Positions 8,868 to 49,473 of a stretch of DNA of 64,000 bases are shown in pieces. Numbering within the stretch: the first letter of the stretch is position 1; each line of letters begins with the position of its first letter. Origin of the DNA: an uncultured Desulfobacterales bacterium. Lineage in GTDB: Bacteria > Desulfobacterota > DSM-4660 > Desulfatiglandales > HGW-15. The notes beneath the pieces are model-generated. The model made no database searches. It was not told the DNA's origin and saw only the letters and a list, made by a program, of their open reading frames with translations. Location of the stretch: positions 70,935-134,934 of the forward strand of contig CAZYJR010000006.1 of the NCBI GenBank assembly GCA_964647905.1, given 5' to 3'. The position numbers were made by a program, and so were the translations under genes.

Positions 8868-9521
8868 TCAGCCCCGCTCCCCGAAGATCAGGGTCCCTAT
8901 CCGCACCAGGTTCGCGCCCTCCTCCAGGGCAACCTTGTAGGAGTTGGACATGCCCATGGAGAGGCAGCGCATGTCCACCCCGGGGATTCCCACTGAGCGG
9001 ATCTCCTCGAAGAGCTCCCTTGTGGTGCGGAAGTACGGCCGGGATTCCTCAGGGTCCCCGGTAAAGGGGCCCATGGTCATGAGGCCCCGGACCTCCACGC
9101 TTTCCATGGAGGAGATCTCCCGGACCAGCCCGGCGGTCTCCTCGGGCCTTACCCCGGCCTTGTTCTCCTCGCGGCCGCTGTTGACCTCCACCAGCACCGG
9201 CATCCTGATCCCGGCCTTGGCGCACTCCTTGTCTATCTCCCGGGCCAGGCGCACGGAGTCCACGGTCTCGATCATGTCGAATATGCGTACCGCCTTTTTC
9301 ACCTTGTTCCGCTGCAGGTGCCCGATCATGTGCCACTTGACCCGCCGGCCCACCCGCTCGAATACCGCCTCGGCCTCCTGGAGGTAGTTCTCCCCGACTA
9401 TCCTCAGGCCGCCTTCGACGGCCTCAAGGATCTCCTCGGCCGAACGCGTCTTGGCCGCGGCCACCAGCTCCACCCCGGCCGGGAGCTCGTCCAGGATGCG
9501 CCTGACGTTCTCTCTTATCAT
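8868..9521 (-). CDS. yggS: YggS-family pyridoxal-phosphate homeostasis protein
   Basis: Start set at ATG 9521 (MIRENVRRI..), preceded by AAGGAG. Motifs AAAKTR..VGENYLQE..WHMIGHLQRNK..RIGTLIFG are typical of YggS. Confidence 0.85.
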   Translation of the reverse strand: MIRENVRRILDELPAGVELVAAAKTRSAEEILEAVEGGLRIVGENYLQEAEAVFERVGRRVKWHMIGHLQRNKVKKAVRIFDMIETVDSVRLAREIDKECAKAGIRMPVLVEVNSGREENKAGVRPEETAGLVREISSMESVEVRGLMTMGPFTGDPEESRPYFRTTRELFEEIRSVGIPGVDMRCLSMGMSNSYKVALEEGANLVRIGTLIFGERG

Positions 9522-9694
9522 CGCCCGCTCCTTTTCGGGCCTCTCGGCCCGCTCAACGTCTTGACACACCACTCTACTACCCCGTGGAGCGGGATTTCAA
9601 CAACAGAGGAGGAGCGGGGTTGAAGTCCGGGTAAAGACAGGGCCTCCCGCCCCGATCCCAGGGACGGGAGGCCCCGCGAAGGAGGGTATACGGA

Positions 9695-10027
9695 TCAGCA
9701 GCTGCAGGAACCGCCCGTGCCGCAACTGGTGCCGCAACCGCCTCCGGCGTTGAGGTTGGACTGGATGGAGAACCCCGATCCCATGGCGGTCTCCACGAAG
9801 TCCACGTTGATGGGCTTTACCTGCTCGTATAGATCCCTGTTGATCACATAAGTGATCTCGTTCTTCTCGAATACTTGGTCGTCTTCCTTAGGCTCGTCCA
9901 GAGCCATGCCCAGCGAGGGCCCGGCTCAACCGCCTTGGGCGAGAAAAATCCTTATGCCGGGGACCTCCTCCTTGTCCTTTAGGAAGTCCTTGATCATGCC
10001 GTCGGCCTTGTCCGTTACTTGAAGCAT
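9695..10027 (-). CDS. HesB/IscA-like small protein with an in-frame TGA (putative selenocysteine) and a Cys/Gly-rich tail
   Basis: ATG at 10027-10025 is preceded by AGGAGG with a 6-nt spacer. Translation is MLQVTDKADGMIKDFLKDKEEVPGIRIFLAQGG-TGA(9928-9926)-AGPSLGMALDEPKEDD.., continuing in frame into the 70-aa ORF of the track (9695..9907). The TGA sits where HesB-like proteins have the GG-Cys-xG cysteine. Confidence 0.7.
9901..9927 (-). promoter_or_regulatory. candidate SECIS-like hairpin immediately 3' of the in-frame UGA
   Basis: The mRNA reads UGAGCCGGGCCCUCGCUGGGCAUGGCUC. It can form an outer stem GAGCC/GGCUC, an inner stem GCCC/GGGC and a loop UCGCU. Folded by eye only. Confidence 0.4.
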
Positions 10028-10154
10028 TTTGTCCTCCTGATTATTCTCTGCCCCGCCGGGGCAGGGTTAAGTCTTTTAATCTATACATCGGCCGTGGATT
10101 GTCAATCCCTTTCCGCCGTCATGCTTGTATAGAGCCGGAAACGCGCATCAGGTT

Positions 10155-10790
10155 TCAAGCGAAGACTGGCTCTTCGCTCATGCGCTGCTCCAGCCACGCC
10201 AGGACCTTTCGGAACTCGGAGCGCAGCTCGGCCATGGCCTTTCCCCTGTGGCTGACGCGGTTCTTTACCCCGGCCGGGAGCTCGGCGAATGTCCTTCCCA
10301 GGGGCGGGTAAAAGAAGACCGGGTCATACCCGAACCCCTCATCCCCCGAGGGCCGGAGGGCTATCTCCCCTTCGCAGCGCGCCTCGTACGTCAGGGCCGG
10401 CCCCCTGGGAACAGCGATGCTTATGTTGCAGACGAACTCCGCCCGTCGGTCGGCAACGCCCGACAGCTCCTCCAAGAGCTTCCGGATGTTGTCCTCGTCC
10501 CCGGCCCCGGGGCCGGCGTAGCGGGCCGAACGTATGCCCGGGGCCCCTCCCAGGGCCGAGACCACCAGGCCGGAGTCGTCCGCGAGCGCGGGCAGCCCCA
10601 GGGCCTTTGCCGTAAAAGAGGCCTTCTTGTAGGCGTTCTCCTCAAAGGTGGACCCGTCCTCCTCCACCTCGGGGATGGGGCCGAAGTCGTTCAAGCTGCG
10701 CAGCTCCACTCCGAAATCGCCAACAAGCTCGCGGAACTCCCGGATCTTTCCCGGATTGCGCGTGGCCAGCACGATGGTTCTCTCAAGCAT
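10155..10790 (-). CDS. rdgB: dITP/XTP pyrophosphatase RdgB (HAM1 family)
   Basis: Start set at ATG 10790 (MLERTIVLATRNPGKIREF). FGYDPVF and SHRGKA motifs are present. Confidence 0.85.
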   Translation of the reverse strand: MLERTIVLATRNPGKIREFRELVGDFGVELRSLNDFGPIPEVEEDGSTFEENAYKKASFTAKALGLPALADDSGLVVSALGGAPGIRSARYAGPGAGDEDNIRKLLEELSGVADRRAEFVCNISIAVPRGPALTYEARCEGEIALRPSGDEGFGYDPVFFYPPLGRTFAELPAGVKNRVSHRGKAMAELRSEFRKVLAWLEQRMSEEPVFA

Positions 10791-13722: not shown

Positions 13723-15118
13723 GGAGCCGAGGCAGCCGGGCCCGGATGCAGGGGATCCGGAAGGCGCGGTAAGGATCCTGCTGGTGGACGACGAGGAGGG
13801 GTTTCTGCGCTCGGCCGGGATCTATCTGGAGCGCCGCGGCCTGGACGTGACCTGCACGGGCGACCCCCTGGCCGCGCTCCAGCTCATCCGGGAGCACCCC
13901 TTCGACATCCTGGTGACCGACATCAAGATGCCCCGGCTGGACGGGATCTCCCTTGCCACCGAGGCCAGGGCGATACACCCGGAATTGAGCATAGTACTGA
14001 TCACCGCCTTCGGGTCCATGGAGGAGGCCATCCAGGCGGTAAGGATCCATGCCTTCGACTTCCTGCTCAAACCCCTGGAGCTCCAGCACCTCCACCGGGT
14101 GATAAGAAAGATCGCCCGGGGCAAGGCCCTTCTCCGGGAGAACCTCCTGCTCAAGAGGGAGCTCAGGGAGCGGGGCTACATGGGGGAGTTCGTGGGAATC
14201 AGCCGGCCGGTGCAGGAGATATACGAGACCATACAAAAGATCAGCCACAGGGACACGCCGGTCTCCATAGAGGGGGAGTCCGGGACCGGCAAGGGGCTCC
14301 TGGCAAGGACCATACACAAGTACAGCCCCAGGAAGACCGAGCCTTTCGTGGAGGTGAACCTGGGGGCCATAGTGCCCCAGCTCATGGGGAGCGAGCTCTT
14401 CGGCCACGTCAAGGGGGCCTTTACCGGCGCCATCCGGGACAACCTGGGGATAATCCTCTCGGCCCACGGGGGCACGCTTTTCCTGGACGAGATAGCCGAG
14501 ATCGCCCCCGAGCTCCAGGTCAAGCTCCTGCGGGTGTTCCAGGACAAGGTGGTAAGACCGGTGGGCGGCAAGAGGGAGGTCCCGGCCGATGTAAGGATCA
14601 TCACCGCCACCAACAGGCCGCTCAAACAGGCGGTGGAGCAGGGGGACCTGAGGGAGGATTTCTACTACAGGATCCGGGTCCTTCCCATACGGATACCGCC
14701 CCTGAGGGAGCGCAAAGAGGACGTGCCCGTGCTGGTGGGACACATCCTCAGGCGGCTCCACCGGGAGGGCAAGTCCCGCATACAGGCCGTATCTCCCGGG
14801 GCGATGAACCTGCTCCTGTCATACGACTGGCCCGGCAACGTGCGGGAGCTGGAAAACCTCCTGGAGCGCTGCGCGGCCACCGCCCCGGGCGAACGGATCG
14901 AGCCCCGGGATCTGCCCGCCGAGCCCCTGGACTCGGTCCGCCCGGGCCCCCGGGACGAGGCACCCCTGAAACTGGCGGAGCTCGAGCTGGAGGCGCTCAA
15001 GCGGGCCCTGGCCAGGACCGGGGGCAACAAGAAGCGCGCAGCCGAGCTCTTGGGCATCGACAAGTCCACCCTCCACAGAAAGCTACGCCGCTACGGCCTC
15101 TCCGGGGGGCCGGGATGA
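13715..15118 (+). CDS. sigma-54-dependent response regulator (NtrC family: REC, AAA+ and Fis-type HTH)
   Basis: 467 aa. ILLVDDEE, Walker A GESGTGKG, the GAFTGA loop (HVKGAFTGA), and a C-terminal HTH KKRAAELLGIDKSTLHRKL. Confidence 0.9.
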   Translation: MNEEPRQPGPDAGDPEGAVRILLVDDEEGFLRSAGIYLERRGLDVTCTGDPLAALQLIREHPFDILVTDIKMPRLDGISLATEARAIHPELSIVLITAFGSMEEAIQAVRIHAFDFLLKPLELQHLHRVIRKIARGKALLRENLLLKRELRERGYMGEFVGISRPVQEIYETIQKISHRDTPVSIEGESGTGKGLLARTIHKYSPRKTEPFVEVNLGAIVPQLMGSELFGHVKGAFTGAIRDNLGIILSAHGGTLFLDEIAEIAPELQVKLLRVFQDKVVRPVGGKREVPADVRIITATNRPLKQAVEQGDLREDFYYRIRVLPIRIPPLRERKEDVPVLVGHILRRLHREGKSRIQAVSPGAMNLLLSYDWPGNVRELENLLERCAATAPGERIEPRDLPAEPLDSVRPGPRDEAPLKLAELELEALKRALARTGGNKKRAAELLGIDKSTLHRKLRRYGLSGGPG

Positions 15119-15124
15119 GAAGCC

Positions 15125-15151
15125 CATACAGTGGCGAATCGCCACTGTATG
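15125..15151. promoter_or_regulatory. 27-bp perfect palindrome (12-bp arms, 3-nt centre) between the NtrC-like gene and the pilin operon
   Basis: CATACAGTGGCG-AAT-CGCCACTGTATG lies 7 nt after the stop of the activator gene. It could be a terminator hairpin or a dimeric regulator site. No T-tract follows. Confidence 0.5.
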
Positions 15152-15417
15152 GCATTATGCATCTCACATCCAACCCGCCGATATCTCTTGCCCTTGCACT
15201 CGAGAGAGTTGCATTTTGCGCCCCCCCCAGGGGGCGCGCTTTCCCGCACCGACACCCCCACTGACATAACAGTCTGTTTTAACTGAGCTAAATCCTCCGG
15301 CCCCGGTCAGGCACAAATCTTGATTAGTCTGGTAGGAAAACCCACGCCCCTGGCCGGCACCGGGGGAGATCGAGGCAACCGGCATTGAAAGAAGAGGATT
15401 ATAAGGCGACAAGATCC

Positions 15418-20600: not shown

Positions 20601-21824
20601 GACGTCACGGATCCCAGGAATCCCGAGCTCCTCTGGGAGAGGACCTACCAGGACCTGGGCATGACCATGTCCATCCCGGCGGTGATCAAGGTGGGCGACG
20701 AGTGGTTCGCGGTATTCGGGTCCGGGCCCGAGACCTACCAGGGGACCACCACCAACAAGGGGCACGTCTACGTGGTGGATCTCGCCACCGGCGAGGCCTA
20801 CCCGAATCTCACTGAGTTCGGATCCGGGGTGACCGATGCGTGGCTCTACGAGACCTCTGAGTCGGACGCCTTCATGAACTCCCCGGTCTCCCTGGACAAG
20901 GAGCTCAACTACAACGTGGACGCGGTCTACTTCGGGGAGGCGTATCAGTCAAGCCCATGGAGCGGAAAGGTATACAAGATCTCCATCCCCTGGGACTGGT
21001 CCGACACCTCCACCTACTCGGACGACCCCAACGACACCACCAGCCCCTGGACCTTCTCCGACCTTTTCAGCTCTCCCGGGCCGATCACCGCACCCATGTC
21101 ACTCAGCATCGACTACTTCGACAATGTCTGGGTGTACTTCGGCACGGGGCGCTACCTATCAGAAGAGGACAAGAGCGATACAGACGCCCAGTACCTCTTC
21201 GGACTGGTGGACCCGTTCTTCAACGCCTACTACGACCAGGAGCCCACCGACTACTACCACAACTACGACAAGTCAAAGACCCTGGACTTCAGCACGGACC
21301 TGTTCAACGCGGACTCCTACCTGGTGACCACGGCCGGGAAGGTGTACGATTCCAGCTACAACTACTTCGGCACCTGGGACGACCTGGTGGACGAGGCCAG
21401 GACCAAGGACGGGTGGCGGAGGACCCTTAGCCTGAGCGGGGAGCGCTCCCTGGAGAAGTTCACCGTGCTGGGAGGAATAGCCTTCGCCCCCACCTTCATA
21501 CCCAGCGGCGACATCTGCGGTTTCGGCGGGGAAAGCTATCTCTACGGCCTCTACTACGAGACCGGGACCCCTTACTACAAATCCGTTTTCGAGGACGACA
21601 CCGAGATACTGGTGGTGGAGGAAGAGGGAGAGGAGGTGGAGTACGAGCGGCTCCTGGGCCGCGTCATCCTGGGATCGGGCAAGTCCTCCTCACTGGGGGT
21701 GCACGTGGGGCGCGAGGAGGGGGCCAAGGCCTTCATTCAGCAGAGCACGGGTACGGTGGTCGAGGAGATGATCACCCCGGCGTTCAAGATAAAGAGCGGC
21801 CTGGTCAACTGGCGTGAAAAATAG
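17610..21824 (+). CDS. pilY1: PilY1-like pilus tip adhesin with N-terminal vWA-like domain and C-terminal beta-propeller
   Basis: 1404 aa. Signal peptide present. MIDAS-like ILILLDNSGSM. PilY1/PilC hallmarks KLGDIVHSTPV and VYVGANDGMLHAF. ATG 17610 is preceded by GGGAGG. Confidence 0.85.
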   Translation: MELLKRLAMVILIAGGLVQALEGAAAGACTEPVMADYTTYPVFQANAVEPNILILLDNSGSMNGAAYTEAYDHSTRYYGYFEPYKRYTYSSNVFYRDENGDWDGNFLNWATMRRVDVIRKVLMGGLATSRTGGGNQTNYGESAGSSYSYYQYYGQLTDTAQVPASVSPCPAGKYFYFYLSGGNFRFRYWDGSSWRDVGEASYYIRVKKGEDIDGNDLPDEDHNFLDGNLAGIMQRLWERARFGLEVFNTGSDDKKFQNGGLIPRVIGSSMTDMINNIQNMACDTWTPLAEAYYTAIKYFKQEDVESELDYANNVIPNNTAAEDPYNNPDPVHCAKSFVLLLTDGASTKDLYIPDELKDYDGDGNDGITTVDSGTTNDGRLEAQAGSDTDKTFYLNYIEGYAAGVTPYPSGTTPFNDEYIGKRLVLFDSQDNQIYSAEITAVNYYDSTSGTSEMVVSGTTETPEWRSGASPYTYDFQWKVVQTAPNSEGGITAGSDYLDDLALYARINDLRDDLYGDQNLLLYDVYAFGSDASARNLLKDAAKNGGFEDKDGDRRPDLDVEWDADGDGVPDTYYEASDGYQLESQLLRAINDILKRAASGTAVSVLATSGEGEGNLVQAYFRPSVTSGVTEVTWVGYLQSLWADQYGNLREDTDGDLALDVTADRIIKYFHDSQDGDSKIRRFEVSGASPYPDTDTAPYEVIELEEAEPLWEAGSLLADRSADDREIFTYADMDRDGVVDDPGGDPFDDLGEAVRFHASGATEVLKPYFGIRDDDSWDYLGATQDDRVHNLIEYVRGKESGFSGTTPMAVRSRVLDGKVWKLGDIVHSTPVSISKPPENYHAIYSDQSYQDYYDAYKDRETVVYVGANDGMLHAFTSWQYSGVSKQYETPSGAGAGERIGDEIWAYIPQRVLPHLKWLPYTDYTHTYYVDLKPKVFDAKIFPDDTHYTDGDADPNWGTILLLGLNMGGKEICSEDWFDDGTGTTVYETRTFRPSYAALDVTDPRNPELLWERTYQDLGMTMSIPAVIKVGDEWFAVFGSGPETYQGTTTNKGHVYVVDLATGEAYPNLTEFGSGVTDAWLYETSESDAFMNSPVSLDKELNYNVDAVYFGEAYQSSPWSGKVYKISIPWDWSDTSTYSDDPNDTTSPWTFSDLFSSPGPITAPMSLSIDYFDNVWVYFGTGRYLSEEDKSDTDAQYLFGLVDPFFNAYYDQEPTDYYHNYDKSKTLDFSTDLFNADSYLVTTAGKVYDSSYNYFGTWDDLVDEARTKDGWRRTLSLSGERSLEKFTVLGGIAFAPTFIPSGDICGFGGESYLYGLYYETGTPYYKSVFEDDTEILVVEEEGEEVEYERLLGRVILGSGKSSSLGVHVGREEGAKAFIQQSTGTVVEEMITPAFKIKSGLVNWREK

Positions 21825-42125: not shown

Positions 42126-42306
42126 GCTGAAATGTATCGGATAACATGAGGCTCAAGCGGACGCTCCTTCATCGCGGCCCTCTAGCCTCTGAGTTGAGGT
42201 ATTGCTCTGCAATCCTTCTGATTTTGTTCCCCGCCGATTTTCGAGCTTACGATAAGGATTCTGCATAAAACTCTGCTGGTTTTTTCACCGTCGACATCGC
42301 GCATGA

Positions 42307-42837
42307 TTCCAAAGGCAATACCATATACTAACCAAGATTATCAGCAACGGCCAACCGGGAGCCGCCCGAGCGGCCGTTGACGCAGCCATCGAACTCGTCA
42401 CCCCCCACGAGGGCCGGACCCCCAAAGGGTACCCCGCCGAAGCCGGGCCCCTGGTGGAGCGATACAACCTGACTGAGGTGCCCACGAAGGACTATGCGGA
42501 TTGCACAAGGCAGAACATCCTCGATTCCGATGGTACCGTCATCTACTCGCACGGCGAACTCGGGGGCCAATCAAAGCTCACTGCGGACATGGCCACAGAA
42601 CTCAGGCGGCCCTTCCTTCATATCGACCTCCAGAAGGAGCTGATTGCCGGAGCCGCAAAGGTGCTCTCTGTGTGGACAGAACTCCACAAGATAGCGGTTC
42701 TCAATGTCACGGGACCCACGGCCAGCGAGGACCCTCAGATATACGAGAAGGTGAAAACCGTGATGGAGGTCGCCCTGGTGCTCTTAAGGGGGCAGAAGAG
42801 GTGGCAAGCAATGGAGTCAGGCCATCCTACTCACTGA
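42307..42837 (+). pseudogene. SLOG-fold YpsA-like ('putative molybdenum carrier') gene lacking a canonical start codon
   Basis: The frame is open from 42307. KIISNGQPGAARAAVDAAIELVTPHEGRTPKGYPAEAGPLVERYNLTEVPTKDY..DSDGTVIYS parallels the KIISGGQTGADRAALDAA..GGWCPKGR..Y.L.E family pattern. There is no ATG/GTG/TTG before the internal GTG 42454, and the GGQTGAD loop is degenerate (NGQPGAA). Confidence 0.45.
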
Positions 42838-46527: not shown

Positions 46528-49473
46528 ATGACCGAGCGCCTTATAGAGAAGTGGCTGCCCATTGCTGAGTTGGGTGAAGAGAGCATACGGGAGCGTCGCT
46601 CGATGACAGCCCTCCCACCTACTTACTACCTCCACGTATGGTGGGCGCGACGGCCCCTGGTGGCCTCGCGCGCGGCGGTCTTGGCCTCGGTGCTGCCGGC
46701 CGATGCCGACCAGGACAGGTTTATGCACGCTCTGGGGATTCATGGGGATCCGATCAAGACCAAGCGACAGCTTGAACACGCCAAGAGGACTGGAGAAAAC
46801 CTTGGCCTCAACCCGTATGGTTACAAACGTGCCTTCCAATACCATCCAGACAAGGATGAGAAGGAGTGGATCAAGTACGAGACAGGGCGACTAGGTCTCC
46901 AGGACCTCCTAGTGCTTGATCCCACTGCCGGTGGGGGCAGTATTCCTTTCGAATCAACGCGCTTAGGAATCGCCAGCTTGGCCAACGACCTCAACCCGGT
47001 GGCCGGGCTTGTTTTAAGGGCAACTATCGAAGCGCCCATGCGCCATGGCCTTGATGTGCTCTACCAGTTCAATCGCCTTTCTAAGCGCTTCTTAGAATTG
47101 GCTGAGCCTAGATTCCGGGGTGTATTTCCGCCAGAGCCCGAAGATGCCCAAGTGCTTGGCTACCTCTGGAGCCGCACAATAACCTGTCCTTACTGCGACG
47201 GCCTTATCCCGCTTTCTCCCAACTGGCGTCTTGCTCCGGACGGCACCGGCGTGCGCTTGCACCCGAGCACCGGTCCTGGCGAGCGGCGTTGCTCCTTCGA
47301 GATCGTCAAGAAGGCCGAAGAGCAGTCGGAGGGGACCGTCACCGGCGGCAATGCCACATGCCCCTTCCCCGATTGCGGCCGTGTGGTGGACGGCTCCGAG
47401 GTCAAGCGGCAAGCCCAGGCCGGGGGTATGGGCGAGCAGCTCTATGCCGTCGTCTACAAGAAGCGGGTGGAGACCCGTACCAAGAACGGAAAGGTCCGCG
47501 AGAAGTGGGTGCGGGGCTACCGGGCCCCTCGGGAGGAGGACGACAACTCAGATGCGATTAGGAAGGTCCTGGCCCAGAAGCTGCCCGAGTGGGAGGCCCT
47601 GGATATGGTGCCAACTGAGACATACAACTATATGTACTCTGACCGCTCCAAGGTGTATGGAGTGGATTTTTGGCGCGACCTCTTTTCCCCCCGCCAGCTC
47701 CTGGGCCACTGCACCAGTGTGGAGGTCTACCGCGAACTCCTGGAGAAGGCCACGGCCGAGGCCGGGGGCGAGCTACCAGAAGCGACCAAGGCCGCCTTAG
47801 GGTATTTGGCTTTGGGGTTGGATAAGCTCAGAGACTACAACTCCCGTATGACTCGCTGGCACAGCTCCCGACAGGTGATGGTGAACACTTTCGACAGGCA
47901 TGATTTCTCATTCAAGTGGTCTTACGCCGAGATGGCTCCCCTCATAGTAGGCTTGGGCTATGACTGGGCCCTGGAGCAGACGGCCAAGTGTATAGCCGAG
48001 CTGGTGGAACTGGCCCGTCCTGATATAGACGTAAAGAAGGCCCTCAAGCACCCCGACCAGGTCTCCATGCCCAACGGCAACTTCTCACCCCCTCACGTCA
48101 CCGTGACGTGCAAGTCAGCCGACGGCCTGGACCACCTTGGTGATGCCTCGGTGGACGTGGTGGTCATGGACCCCCCTTACTACGACAACGTGATGTACGC
48201 CGAGCTGTCCGATTTTTTCTACGTATGGCTCAAGCGCACCGCCGGATATGTTTACCCCGAGTTCTTCCGGAGGCCGCTGACCGACAAGGAACAGGAGGCC
48301 GTGGCCAACCCGGCCCACTTCAGGGGGCAAAAGGGGGCCAAGATGCTCGCTTACAAGGAGTACCGCGACCGCATGGCCGCGATCTTCTCCGAGAGCAGGC
48401 GGGTGCTCAAGCCCGCCGGTGTCATGACCCTTATGTTCACCCACAAGGCGACCGGCGCATGGGACGCCCTTACCACCGGACTCATGGAGGCGGGCTTTGT
48501 GATAACCGCCAGTTGGCCTGTAAACACAGAGGCTGAAGGGTCCATGCACATCAAGGACAAGTCTGCTGCAAACAGCACGGTCTTCCTGGTCTGCCGCCCG
48601 CGCCCGGAGCGGGCCGATGACGTCGATGTCCCCTACTGGGAAGACCTGGAGCCCAGAGTGAGAACAGCCGTACGCGGGCGCATCAAGGACTTTCAGGGGG
48701 CCGGCATCCGGGGTGTGGATCTATATCTCTCGGCATTCGGTCCCGCTCTCCAGGAGTTCTCTCGGCACTGGCCCGTCAAGAGGGGTACTCCAAGGGAGCG
48801 TCCTGCCGATCTTCAGCGCAAGAGACAGCTTGAGTTTCTCGAAGAGGAGTTCGACCCCTATGTCGCCACCCCGGAGGACGCCCTGGACGCAGCCCGGCGT
48901 GAGGTCAAACGCTGGCGGCTCGAGCAGTTGACCAACGTCCAGCGCCGGGGAGAGCTTGATCCCCTTACGGAGTGGTTTGTGCTGGCCTGGGACGCCTTCA
49001 AGGCCCCTCAGTTCCCATATGATGAAGCCCTGCGCCTGGCCCGGGCCGTAGGGGTGGATATGGACACGCAGGTCATAAAGACCCTGGCAGGGAAGAAGAC
49101 GAGCTCTGTAATTATGTGGGACGCCTCGACCCGTGCGGCAAAGGGCGCCCTGGGGCCGGCAGACGGCAGCCGCTCCATGCTGGACGCCCTTCACCACGCG
49201 GCTCATATGGCCCGGACCCGCACCTTGAATGCAGCCAAAGATCTGATCGACCAGACCGGATTGGCGGCCGAGCCCCGCTTTCTCACGGCGCTGGAGGCGG
49301 TTCTGGAGGTGCTGCCGCCTTCTCGGGCCTATACAGGCCTGGACCCTGCCAGGGCCGCCGAGCCGGCCGCGAGCGACTTCGAGGCCTTGGAGAGCCTGCG
49401 CCGCCTGGCCTTCAGTGAGGAGGTGGATGAGCCACAGCAGCTCTCCTTCTTGAGGGAAGAAGGGAGAGCCTAA
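46528..49473 (+). CDS. DUF1156-type DNA methyltransferase (DPPY; N6-adenine or N4-cytosine class) with zinc ribbons
   Basis: 981 aa. N-terminus WLPIAELGEESIRER..TYYLHVWWARRP (DUF1156 signature). Motif I VLDPTAGGGSIPFES. Cys pairs CPYCDG and CPFPDCG. Motif IV VVVMDPPYY (DPPY at 48169-48180). Confidence 0.9.
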   Translation: MTERLIEKWLPIAELGEESIRERRSMTALPPTYYLHVWWARRPLVASRAAVLASVLPADADQDRFMHALGIHGDPIKTKRQLEHAKRTGENLGLNPYGYKRAFQYHPDKDEKEWIKYETGRLGLQDLLVLDPTAGGGSIPFESTRLGIASLANDLNPVAGLVLRATIEAPMRHGLDVLYQFNRLSKRFLELAEPRFRGVFPPEPEDAQVLGYLWSRTITCPYCDGLIPLSPNWRLAPDGTGVRLHPSTGPGERRCSFEIVKKAEEQSEGTVTGGNATCPFPDCGRVVDGSEVKRQAQAGGMGEQLYAVVYKKRVETRTKNGKVREKWVRGYRAPREEDDNSDAIRKVLAQKLPEWEALDMVPTETYNYMYSDRSKVYGVDFWRDLFSPRQLLGHCTSVEVYRELLEKATAEAGGELPEATKAALGYLALGLDKLRDYNSRMTRWHSSRQVMVNTFDRHDFSFKWSYAEMAPLIVGLGYDWALEQTAKCIAELVELARPDIDVKKALKHPDQVSMPNGNFSPPHVTVTCKSADGLDHLGDASVDVVVMDPPYYDNVMYAELSDFFYVWLKRTAGYVYPEFFRRPLTDKEQEAVANPAHFRGQKGAKMLAYKEYRDRMAAIFSESRRVLKPAGVMTLMFTHKATGAWDALTTGLMEAGFVITASWPVNTEAEGSMHIKDKSAANSTVFLVCRPRPERADDVDVPYWEDLEPRVRTAVRGRIKDFQGAGIRGVDLYLSAFGPALQEFSRHWPVKRGTPRERPADLQRKRQLEFLEEEFDPYVATPEDALDAARREVKRWRLEQLTNVQRRGELDPLTEWFVLAWDAFKAPQFPYDEALRLARAVGVDMDTQVIKTLAGKKTSSVIMWDASTRAAKGALGPADGSRSMLDALHHAAHMARTRTLNAAKDLIDQTGLAAEPRFLTALEAVLEVLPPSRAYTGLDPARAAEPAASDFEALESLRRLAFSEEVDEPQQLSFLREEGRA

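Follow-up and report, generated by a model that had tools for sequence, protein, structure and literature searches.

An in-frame UGA in a hesB/iscA-like gene of an uncultured Desulfobacterales bacterium is predicted to encode selenocysteine with the help of a conserved 15-nucleotide hairpin

The locus described here lies on the minus strand of a 64,000-nucleotide stretch of genomic DNA (the window) from an uncultured Desulfobacterales bacterium. An ATG at 10027, preceded by AGGAGG at 10038-10033 and a 5-nt spacer, opens a frame that crosses a TGA at 9928-9926 (codon 34) and ends at a second TGA at 9697-9695. The 33 codons upstream of the first TGA are joined in frame, without any other stop, to a 70-aa open reading frame (ORF) listed at 9695..9907. 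The locus therefore raises the question of whether the first TGA ends a short peptide or is a selenocysteine (Sec) codon within one gene and, if the latter, which RNA element would direct its decoding and what the protein would do. We place a probability of about 0.92 on the reading that 10027-9695 is one monocistronic gene for a 110-residue Sec protein resembling the A-type Fe-S carriers, with UGA 34 decoded via a hairpin at 9905-9891. The elements of the gene itself are as follows.

9695..10027, minus strand: full-length hesB/iscA-like gene of a predicted selenoprotein, 110 codons plus the TGA stop at 9697-9695 (NF038090, TIGR00049, PF01521 and an AlphaFold model).
9926..9928, minus strand: in-frame UGA, codon 34, a putative Sec codon that replaces the first conserved cluster-ligand Cys (homolog alignments).
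10033..10038, minus strand: Shine-Dalgarno (SD) sequence AGGAGG, 5 nt 5' of ATG 10027 (the sequence and its relatives).

The preliminary description of this DNA had already reported the ATG with its AGGAGG, the TGA at 9928-9926 and the open run into the 70-aa ORF. Every one of these sequence statements holds, and the product string given there matches the joined product, which has 110 residues with Sec34 counted. An SD of the GGAGG type precedes the same ATG in 20 of the 20 nearest relatives. The terminal TGA at 9697-9695 was considered as a second Sec codon and rejected. Most relatives have TAA or TAG directly after the final CSC, and the read-through peptides of the relatives that end in TGA are unrelated to each other. 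The same mRNA would carry UGA in both senses, as the Sec codon 34 and as a real stop.

Three further elements flank the gene.

10078..10105, minus strand: sigma-70-like promoter candidate TTGACA-16-TAGATT, which agrees with the consensus at 10 of 12 positions; a match to the consensus only.
10048..10064, minus strand: small 5' leader hairpin CUGCCCC-GGC-GGGGCAG (-13.6 kcal/mol), between the promoter-like site and the SD.
9637..9677, minus strand: terminator-like GC-rich 17-bp hairpin, 18 nt after the stop and followed by CUUU (fold of 9700-9620, -41.1 kcal/mol).

The promoter scan returned two sites against 0.1 expected in shuffles. The U tract after the hairpin at 9637-9677 is too short for the terminator consensus scan. 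Because a promoter-like site stands before the gene and a terminator-like hairpin behind it, a monocistronic unit is suggested. The loop of the latter hairpin, UGGGAUC, fits the pattern of bacterial SECIS elements (bSECIS) loosely; we read the arrangement as a stop followed by a terminator. The upstream neighbours are a gene for a Ham1/RdgB-type NTPase (10844-10155, minus strand) and PGI, and the downstream neighbour encodes a YggS-type PLP-binding protein (9572-8868, minus strand). The order Ham1-hesB-yggS is kept in most of the 20 nearest relatives and not further out. The neighbours point to no particular pathway, and there is no obvious functional link among the Ham1/RdgB, hesB and YggS genes.

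Profile searches place the joined protein, with Cys in place of Sec, in a defined subfamily. The NCBIfam model NF038090, named IscA_HesB_Se, is matched over positions 1-101 of 101 with 127.5 bits against a cut-off of 85. In a six-frame search of the genome, the same model gives 120.4 bits with one TGA. The residue pattern of the model is present as well, with U34 in QGG-U-AGP and the C-terminal Cys cluster kept. The general model of A-type carriers, TIGR00049, is passed with 67.2 bits (cut-off 58.8) and the Pfam family PF01521 with 35.3 bits (cut-off 26.3). TIGR01911, named HesB_rel_seleno, gives 51.8 bits, below its cut-off of 66.35, and the protein stays well below each cut-off of the equivalog models for IscA, SufA and ErpA.

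The AlphaFold2 model, built on 27 sequences, has a mean pLDDT of 82, and residues 96-110 are disordered in it (pLDDT <50). Foldseek matches this model to E. coli IscA, the [2Fe-2S]-bound IscA (1x0g) and SufA, with TM scores of 0.66-0.81. The protein is thus a member of the IscA/HesB selenoprotein subfamily with a predicted IscA/SufA fold. The model puts residue 34 in the loop that separates strands 25-30 and 38-43. The 70-aa ORF, which starts at M41, would consequently be without about one third of a single compact domain, that is, without strands 2-4 and 25-30, helix 6-16 and the start of strand 38-43.

The column of U34 is occupied by Cys in the Cys homologs (P0065, P0082, P0105 and P0119) and in the solved structures 1nwb, 2apn and 1r94 (E. 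coli IscA). Opposite U34, HMMER likewise places the cysteine in the GGC(S)G of Aquifex AQ_1857, of H. influenzae HI1723 and of E. coli IscA. In E. coli IscA, this cysteine is Cys35, the first of the three conserved ligand cysteines. The TGA had been assigned beforehand to the conserved Cys of the GG-C-xG motif, and a failure of Cys homologs to align there had been named as one of the observations that would speak against it; the Cys homologs and E. coli IscA do align at that position.

The remaining cysteines of interest are found at the C-terminus.

9698..9736, minus strand: C-terminal Cys-rich tail GCGTSCGTGGSCSC, composed of the conserved C-terminal cysteines and a clade-specific insertion.

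C98, C108 and C110 are invariant in alignment A1, and the family consensus ends in C-G-x-S-C-S-C. The clade-specific part of the tail consists only of the 6-residue insertion SCGTGG, which brings a fourth Cys, C102, and is common only to the nearest relatives (P0088, P0109, L032, L035 and L043). In the alignment with Aquifex AQ_1857, the tail falls on that protein's C-terminal Cys cluster, the end CG-CGSSFSC. The earlier suggestion that the Gly/Cys-rich tail is unusual and may form a second metal or cluster site is not borne out. The tail is family-wide, and its cysteines align with the canonical C-terminal Cys cluster of A-type carriers; for this reason, it probably supplies the remaining ligands of the Sec34 site rather than a second site.

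In the proposed mechanism, Sec34 would replace the first of the three ligand cysteines that are conserved in IscA/SufA-type carriers, and the other ligand cysteines would lie in the flexible C-terminal C-x(n)-C-x-C tail. With these residues as ligands, iron or a transient Fe-S cluster would most likely be bound and passed on. By analogy with A-type carriers, this most likely takes place at a dimer interface, with the selenolate as one of the ligands. When TIGR00049 is combined with a six-frame HMM scan in which TGA is read through, no A-type carrier homolog other than this gene can be detected in the assembly. A whole-genome search with PF01521 returned no candidates and missed this gene too; it was set aside and replaced by that combination. 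The Sec gene is also the sole NF038090 match in 25 of the 28 nearest genomes that have it.

An alternative is that the gene encodes a Sec protein that is not an Fe-S carrier, in which Sec34 and the C-terminal cysteines would act as a redox-active selenenylsulfide or would handle selenium, sulfur or a metal. Most uncharacterised prokaryotic selenoproteins are thought to have redox functions (PMC13188914), and the archaeal HesB-like selenoprotein is without an assigned function. The literature describes the role of HesB-like selenoproteins as unclear, and a disruption mutant of Methanococcus was unimpaired in nitrogen fixation (PMC11097638). The fold matches include, at rank 9, the sulfur-oxidation protein DsrR, which has an IscA fold, and the neighbouring Ham1/RdgB, YggS-like and PGI genes offer no Fe-S context. 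However, the general A-type carrier model is passed over its cut-off, and the full Cys/Sec ligand pattern is kept at the IscA/SufA positions. A housekeeping role would otherwise be unfilled in an assembly in which no other A-type carrier homolog is detectable. We regard this alternative as unlikely, though by no means negligible, and the carrier reading as the preferred one.

Decoding of UGA as Sec in bacteria involves a SECIS hairpin within the gene, the prototype of which is that of E. coli fdhF. Two hairpins that share a segment have to be distinguished at this locus.

9891..9905, minus strand: predicted bacterial SECIS hairpin, with the stem GGCUC (9905-9901)/GAGCC (9895-9891) and the loop UGGAC (9900-9896), from the RNAalifold consensus.
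9901..9927, minus strand: hairpin of the preliminary description, an alternative pairing that uses the SECIS 5' arm; not conserved (single-sequence fold and 45-gene alignment).

RNAalifold was applied to A2, an alignment of 45 homologous genes. The only structure predicted was the pairing of columns 33-37 with 43-47, which corresponds to GGCUC-UGGAC-GAGCC. All five core pairs are formed in 45 of the 45 sequences (225 of 225 cells). Pair 35-45 is C-G in 40 sequences and U-A in five, namely in L036 and, separately, in L063, L064, L065 and L069. In each U-A case, a change from Ala to Val (GCU to GUU) is matched by a synonymous change from GAG to GAA. Pair 34-46 is G-C in 34 sequences and G-U in 11, and 12 changes from G-C to G-U were counted in the stem.

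The conservation of this hairpin largely coincides with the conserved peptide ALDE, and only five core pairs are available. Because of this overlap, the evidence for the RNA rests on the synonymous sites, on the one covarying pair and on the contrast with Cys paralogs. Synonymous sites are frozen within the hairpin: Ala is GCU in 40 of 40 and Leu is CUG in 45 of 45, and the Glu codon is GAG or GAA strictly in step with its pairing partner. A few positions upstream in these sequences, the codon choice for other Leu, Ala and Ser residues varies freely. Seven Cys paralogs from the same loci encode the same or a similar peptide through GCC, UUG and other codons, and keep only 0-4 of the five pairs.

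The hairpin also agrees with the published bSECIS constraints. These are a loop of 3-9 nt that has a G within its two opening nucleotides, a stem of 4-16 bp, a distance of 16-37 nt from the UGA to the loop and a minimum free energy (MFE) of -7.5 kcal/mol or lower (PMC13188914, Fig. 2). The values found for 9905-9891 are a 5-nt loop (UGGAC), a 5-bp stem, a spacing of 25 nt and -8.1 kcal/mol. In relatives with UUGG...CCAA, the stem extends to 7 bp. An Rfam scan of 9500-10200 at E <= 10 gave chance-level matches only (for example miRNA models and P35), with no family on the stretch downstream of the UGA, and it bears neither way on the SECIS. We conclude with good comparative support that the predicted SECIS of the gene is the hairpin at 9905-9891. 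This would pin the SECIS of the subfamily to a specific 15-nt hairpin and make it a clean target for reporter or SelB-binding work.

The preliminary description had placed a hairpin at or directly after the UGA, at 9927-9901. This hairpin can form, and it is the MFE structure of the single-sequence fold of 9935-9870 (-25.9 kcal/mol). It starts inside the UGA and competes with 9905-9891 for the segment UGGCUC. It might therefore be the functional SECIS itself, or one side of a mutually exclusive switch with 9905-9891 that tunes Sec insertion. In support of this, the GAGCC at the UGA repeats the SECIS 3' arm in the window, as it does in other relatives whose next codon is likewise Ala (GCC), and the inner 4-bp stem covaries somewhat, with pair 18-30 changed on both sides in seven cells. 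However, the stability of the structure is ordinary when compared with shuffles (z = -1.32). The bSECIS rules on spacing and on the loop G are violated, with only 9 nt from the UGA to the loop and a loop, UCGCU, whose two opening nucleotides include no G.

Conservation also speaks against 9927-9901. Over the 45 genes, pairing is kept in 78% of its cells; pair 13-35 is open in 24 of the 45, pair 14-34 in 11 and pair 15-33 in 13. The outer stem and the middle pairs are broken wherever the next codon is Ser instead of GCC. In addition, most of this hairpin would be hidden under a ribosome that has the UGA in its A site. A functional role for 9927-9901 is improbable, and what stands of the earlier proposal is that such a hairpin can form, not that it is the conserved SECIS.

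With 9905-9891 as the predicted SECIS, decoding may proceed as follows. When the ribosome reaches the UGA of codon 34, the 5-bp hairpin GGCUC-UGGAC-GAGCC, 21 nt downstream, would stand just outside the ribosome. Its UGG-containing loop would be offered to SelB carrying GTP and Sec-tRNA(Sec), and this complex would insert selenocysteine at UGA 34 instead of allowing termination. At the second UGA (9697-9695), which is followed by no conserved element or coding sequence, translation would terminate. The analysis establishes the structure of the gene, its family, the correspondence of Sec and Cys, the constraint on the RNA and the presence of selA, selB and selC; Sec insertion itself, the contact of SelB with the hairpin and the role as Fe-S carrier are inferred.

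A wider proposal joins several of these points: the Sec gene would be the sole A-type carrier here and in most of the order, Fe-S trafficking would be partly selenium-dependent, and alternative pairing of the SECIS would tune insertion in about half of the genes. Taken together, this proposal is tentative and rather doubtful. If the Sec gene were indeed the sole carrier, Fe-S trafficking would in part be obligatorily dependent on selenium, and a selenolate would directly ligate a transient cluster.

The in-frame UGA itself is widely conserved. An NF038090 match over the cut-off with exactly one in-frame TGA is present in 28 of the 41 nearest genomes, the window's own genome counted. Phylum-wide, a match over the cut-off was obtained in 119 of the 301 genomes sampled; among the matches listed, about four in five contain one TGA, and those without TGA are often in tandem with a TGA copy. 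The comparative set of 45 homologous genes was extracted from across the phylum and is a phylogenetically structured sample; within it, the TGA is at the same codon in 45 of 45, in the context GG-U-[AGS]G-[PA]. On these comparisons, the conservation of the TGA is far beyond chance. Close relatives of the gene are found in metagenome-assembled genomes (MAGs) labelled Desulfobacteraceae, Desulfatiglandales or Ca. Desulfacyla. Homologs with 43-61% identity also occur on contigs binned as Anaerolineales, Acidobacteriota and Armatimonadota (L106, L118 and L124), which could reflect horizontal transfer or mis-binning.

Sec and Cys paralogs stand in tandem, a few hundred bases apart, at the loci L046-L049, L052 and L063-L065 in other families of the phylum. 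Pairs of Sec and Cys isogenes are known from methanogens. The tandem paralogs resemble these pairs and, by this analogy, may reflect selenium-dependent switching.

The substitution pattern points in the same direction as the conserved UGA. Compared with three close relatives, the differences upstream of the TGA at codon positions 1/2/3 are 3/0/11, 4/1/15 and 6/1/15, and this pattern equals that downstream of the TGA. The region upstream thus evolves as coding sequence, with both sides under purifying selection. These data bear on the possibility that the TGA really stops translation or is an inactivating mutation, so that only a 33-residue peptide or the 70-aa ORF would be made from a split gene or pseudogene. 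Such a reading would agree with the output of gene callers and with the protein database, in which the 70-aa fragment (P0008) is the sole entry for this organism's gene, and with the failure to find selD in the assembly. It is very improbable, however, because 45 genes, drawn from many families of the phylum, share the TGA at one codon, with purifying selection on both sides of it. No SD-like site was found before ATG 9907, the start of the 70-aa ORF, half of a single compact domain would not fold, and the UGA is followed by a SECIS-type hairpin with Sec-specific nucleotide constraint.

Decoding of the UGA as Trp, Gly or Cys through a reassigned code or near-cognate read-through is hardly credible: W does stand at the Sec column in many metagenomic database entries (P0002-P0035), but these are evidently table-4 miscalls on short contigs and not Trp variants, because the terminal TGA is likewise read as W in one of them (P0003), and in addition the gene itself ends in TGA, table 11 yields normal genes across the whole window, the genome has a dedicated tRNA-Sec, selA and selB, and the homolog residue at this column is Cys, not Trp or Gly. 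Dozens of metagenomic entries are full-length only through table 4 on short contigs, with W at the Sec codon and in some cases at the final TGA too, and these could mislead alignments.

The genome encodes most of the machinery that Sec insertion would need. SelA is found with 613.1 bits, selB with 404.7 bits, and a tRNA-Sec of 94-98 nt with the anticodon UCA with 74.9 bits. Two other selenoprotein families are also represented, TsoA (206 bits) and rSAM_SeCys (370 bits), each with one in-frame TGA. The search for selA, selB, selC and selD proposed in the preliminary description thus succeeded for selA, selB and the tRNA-Sec. In this assembly, neither TIGR00476 nor NF002098 nor tblastn with the SelD of three relatives detected selD. 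The selD searches returned only paralogs of the PurM/ThiL/HypE type.

The assembly is 95.4% complete and consists of 69 contigs, the shortest of 2.5 kb. SelD is over the cut-off in 22 of 25 relatives, where it usually contains TGA and often sits on a short contig or at the end of a contig. The SelD of relatives is itself a selenoprotein with the motif GAGU-ASK (L070-L072 and L131). When the whole 7-kb selD contig of a same-genus relative was mapped to this genome, no counterpart and no synteny were found; the other genes of that contig encode an ABC transporter, an MFS transporter, a P-loop ATPase and an Fe-S protein. In that relative, selD adjoins the ABC transporter with a PBP_like_2 binding protein. 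The absence of selD is most likely due to an unassembled segment, because loss of selD is improbable in a genome that retains selA, selB, selC and numerous conserved Sec codons.

A separate observation on the assembly concerns contigs C13 and C14, on which radical-SAM matches are identical in score and length. One such pair is 21068-21538 with 14732-15202, and a second is 48640-49035 with 42304-42699. This suggests a duplicated contig or a strain duplication in the assembly.

Finally, we compare the gene with known systems. HesB-like proteins were described as a bacterial selenoprotein family with 11 members in 2006 (PMC1794560), including those of Syntrophobacter fumaroxidans, Syntrophus aciditrophicus, Desulfovibrio vulgaris and Geobacter sulfurreducens (PMC1794560, Table 3). 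They appear in the table of a 2026 review under TIGR01911 with the motif UxGP (PMC13188914, Table 1), and the HesB-like selenoprotein of Methanococcus maripaludis was confirmed by 75Se labelling (PMC11097638). The protein described here shares with them the UxGP motif (UAGP in this case), the HesB/IscA homology, the existence of Cys homologs and an anaerobic host of the deltaproteobacteria type. The likeness to the genes of the named species is one of descriptions and models. Both papers, PMC1794560 and PMC13188914, bear out that the family is known from Deltaproteobacteria-type anaerobes, as had been stated at the outset. Together with NF038090, the alignments of Cys homologs and the presence of selA, selB and tRNA-Sec, they support the first reading of the gene as a HesB/IscA-like selenoprotein.

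The gene is thus an unannotated member of a family known since about 2004-2006, and knowledge of selenoproteins as such is unchanged by the finding. What is new is the corrected position of the SECIS with its comparative support, the reinterpretation of the tail, the observation that the gene is the sole carrier detected and the missing selD. The main value is one of annotation: databases keep the organism's sole detectable A-type Fe-S carrier as a fragment of 70 residues, and many metagenomic homologs are entered with a spurious Trp where Sec would stand.

The predicted hairpin shares with the bSECIS consensus (PMC13188914, Fig. 2A) its place within the gene 3' of the UGA and a loop with G at position 2 followed by another G, but its stem is short and without the bulged U. 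With IscA, SufA and ErpA (1r94/1s98, 1x0g of T. elongatus and SufA 2d2a), the protein has in common the predicted fold, the TIGR00049 and PF01521 matches and a three-ligand pattern, in which the first ligand stands in GG-C-xG and two are near the C-terminus. The first ligand is Cys in these A-type carriers, whereas it would be Sec in this protein. Their C-terminal motif is C-G-C-G-x-S-F, whereas here C-x3-C-x5-C-x-C stands at the very end. The protein falls below the cut-off of TIGR01911 and belongs to the sister model NF038090, with its C-terminal cysteines kept. The NF038090 subfamily, which is widespread in the same phylum and mostly contains one TGA, has the same Sec position, the GG-U-xGP motif and the C-terminal Cys tail; the present gene differs from it only by the 6-residue insertion with the fourth C-terminal Cys.
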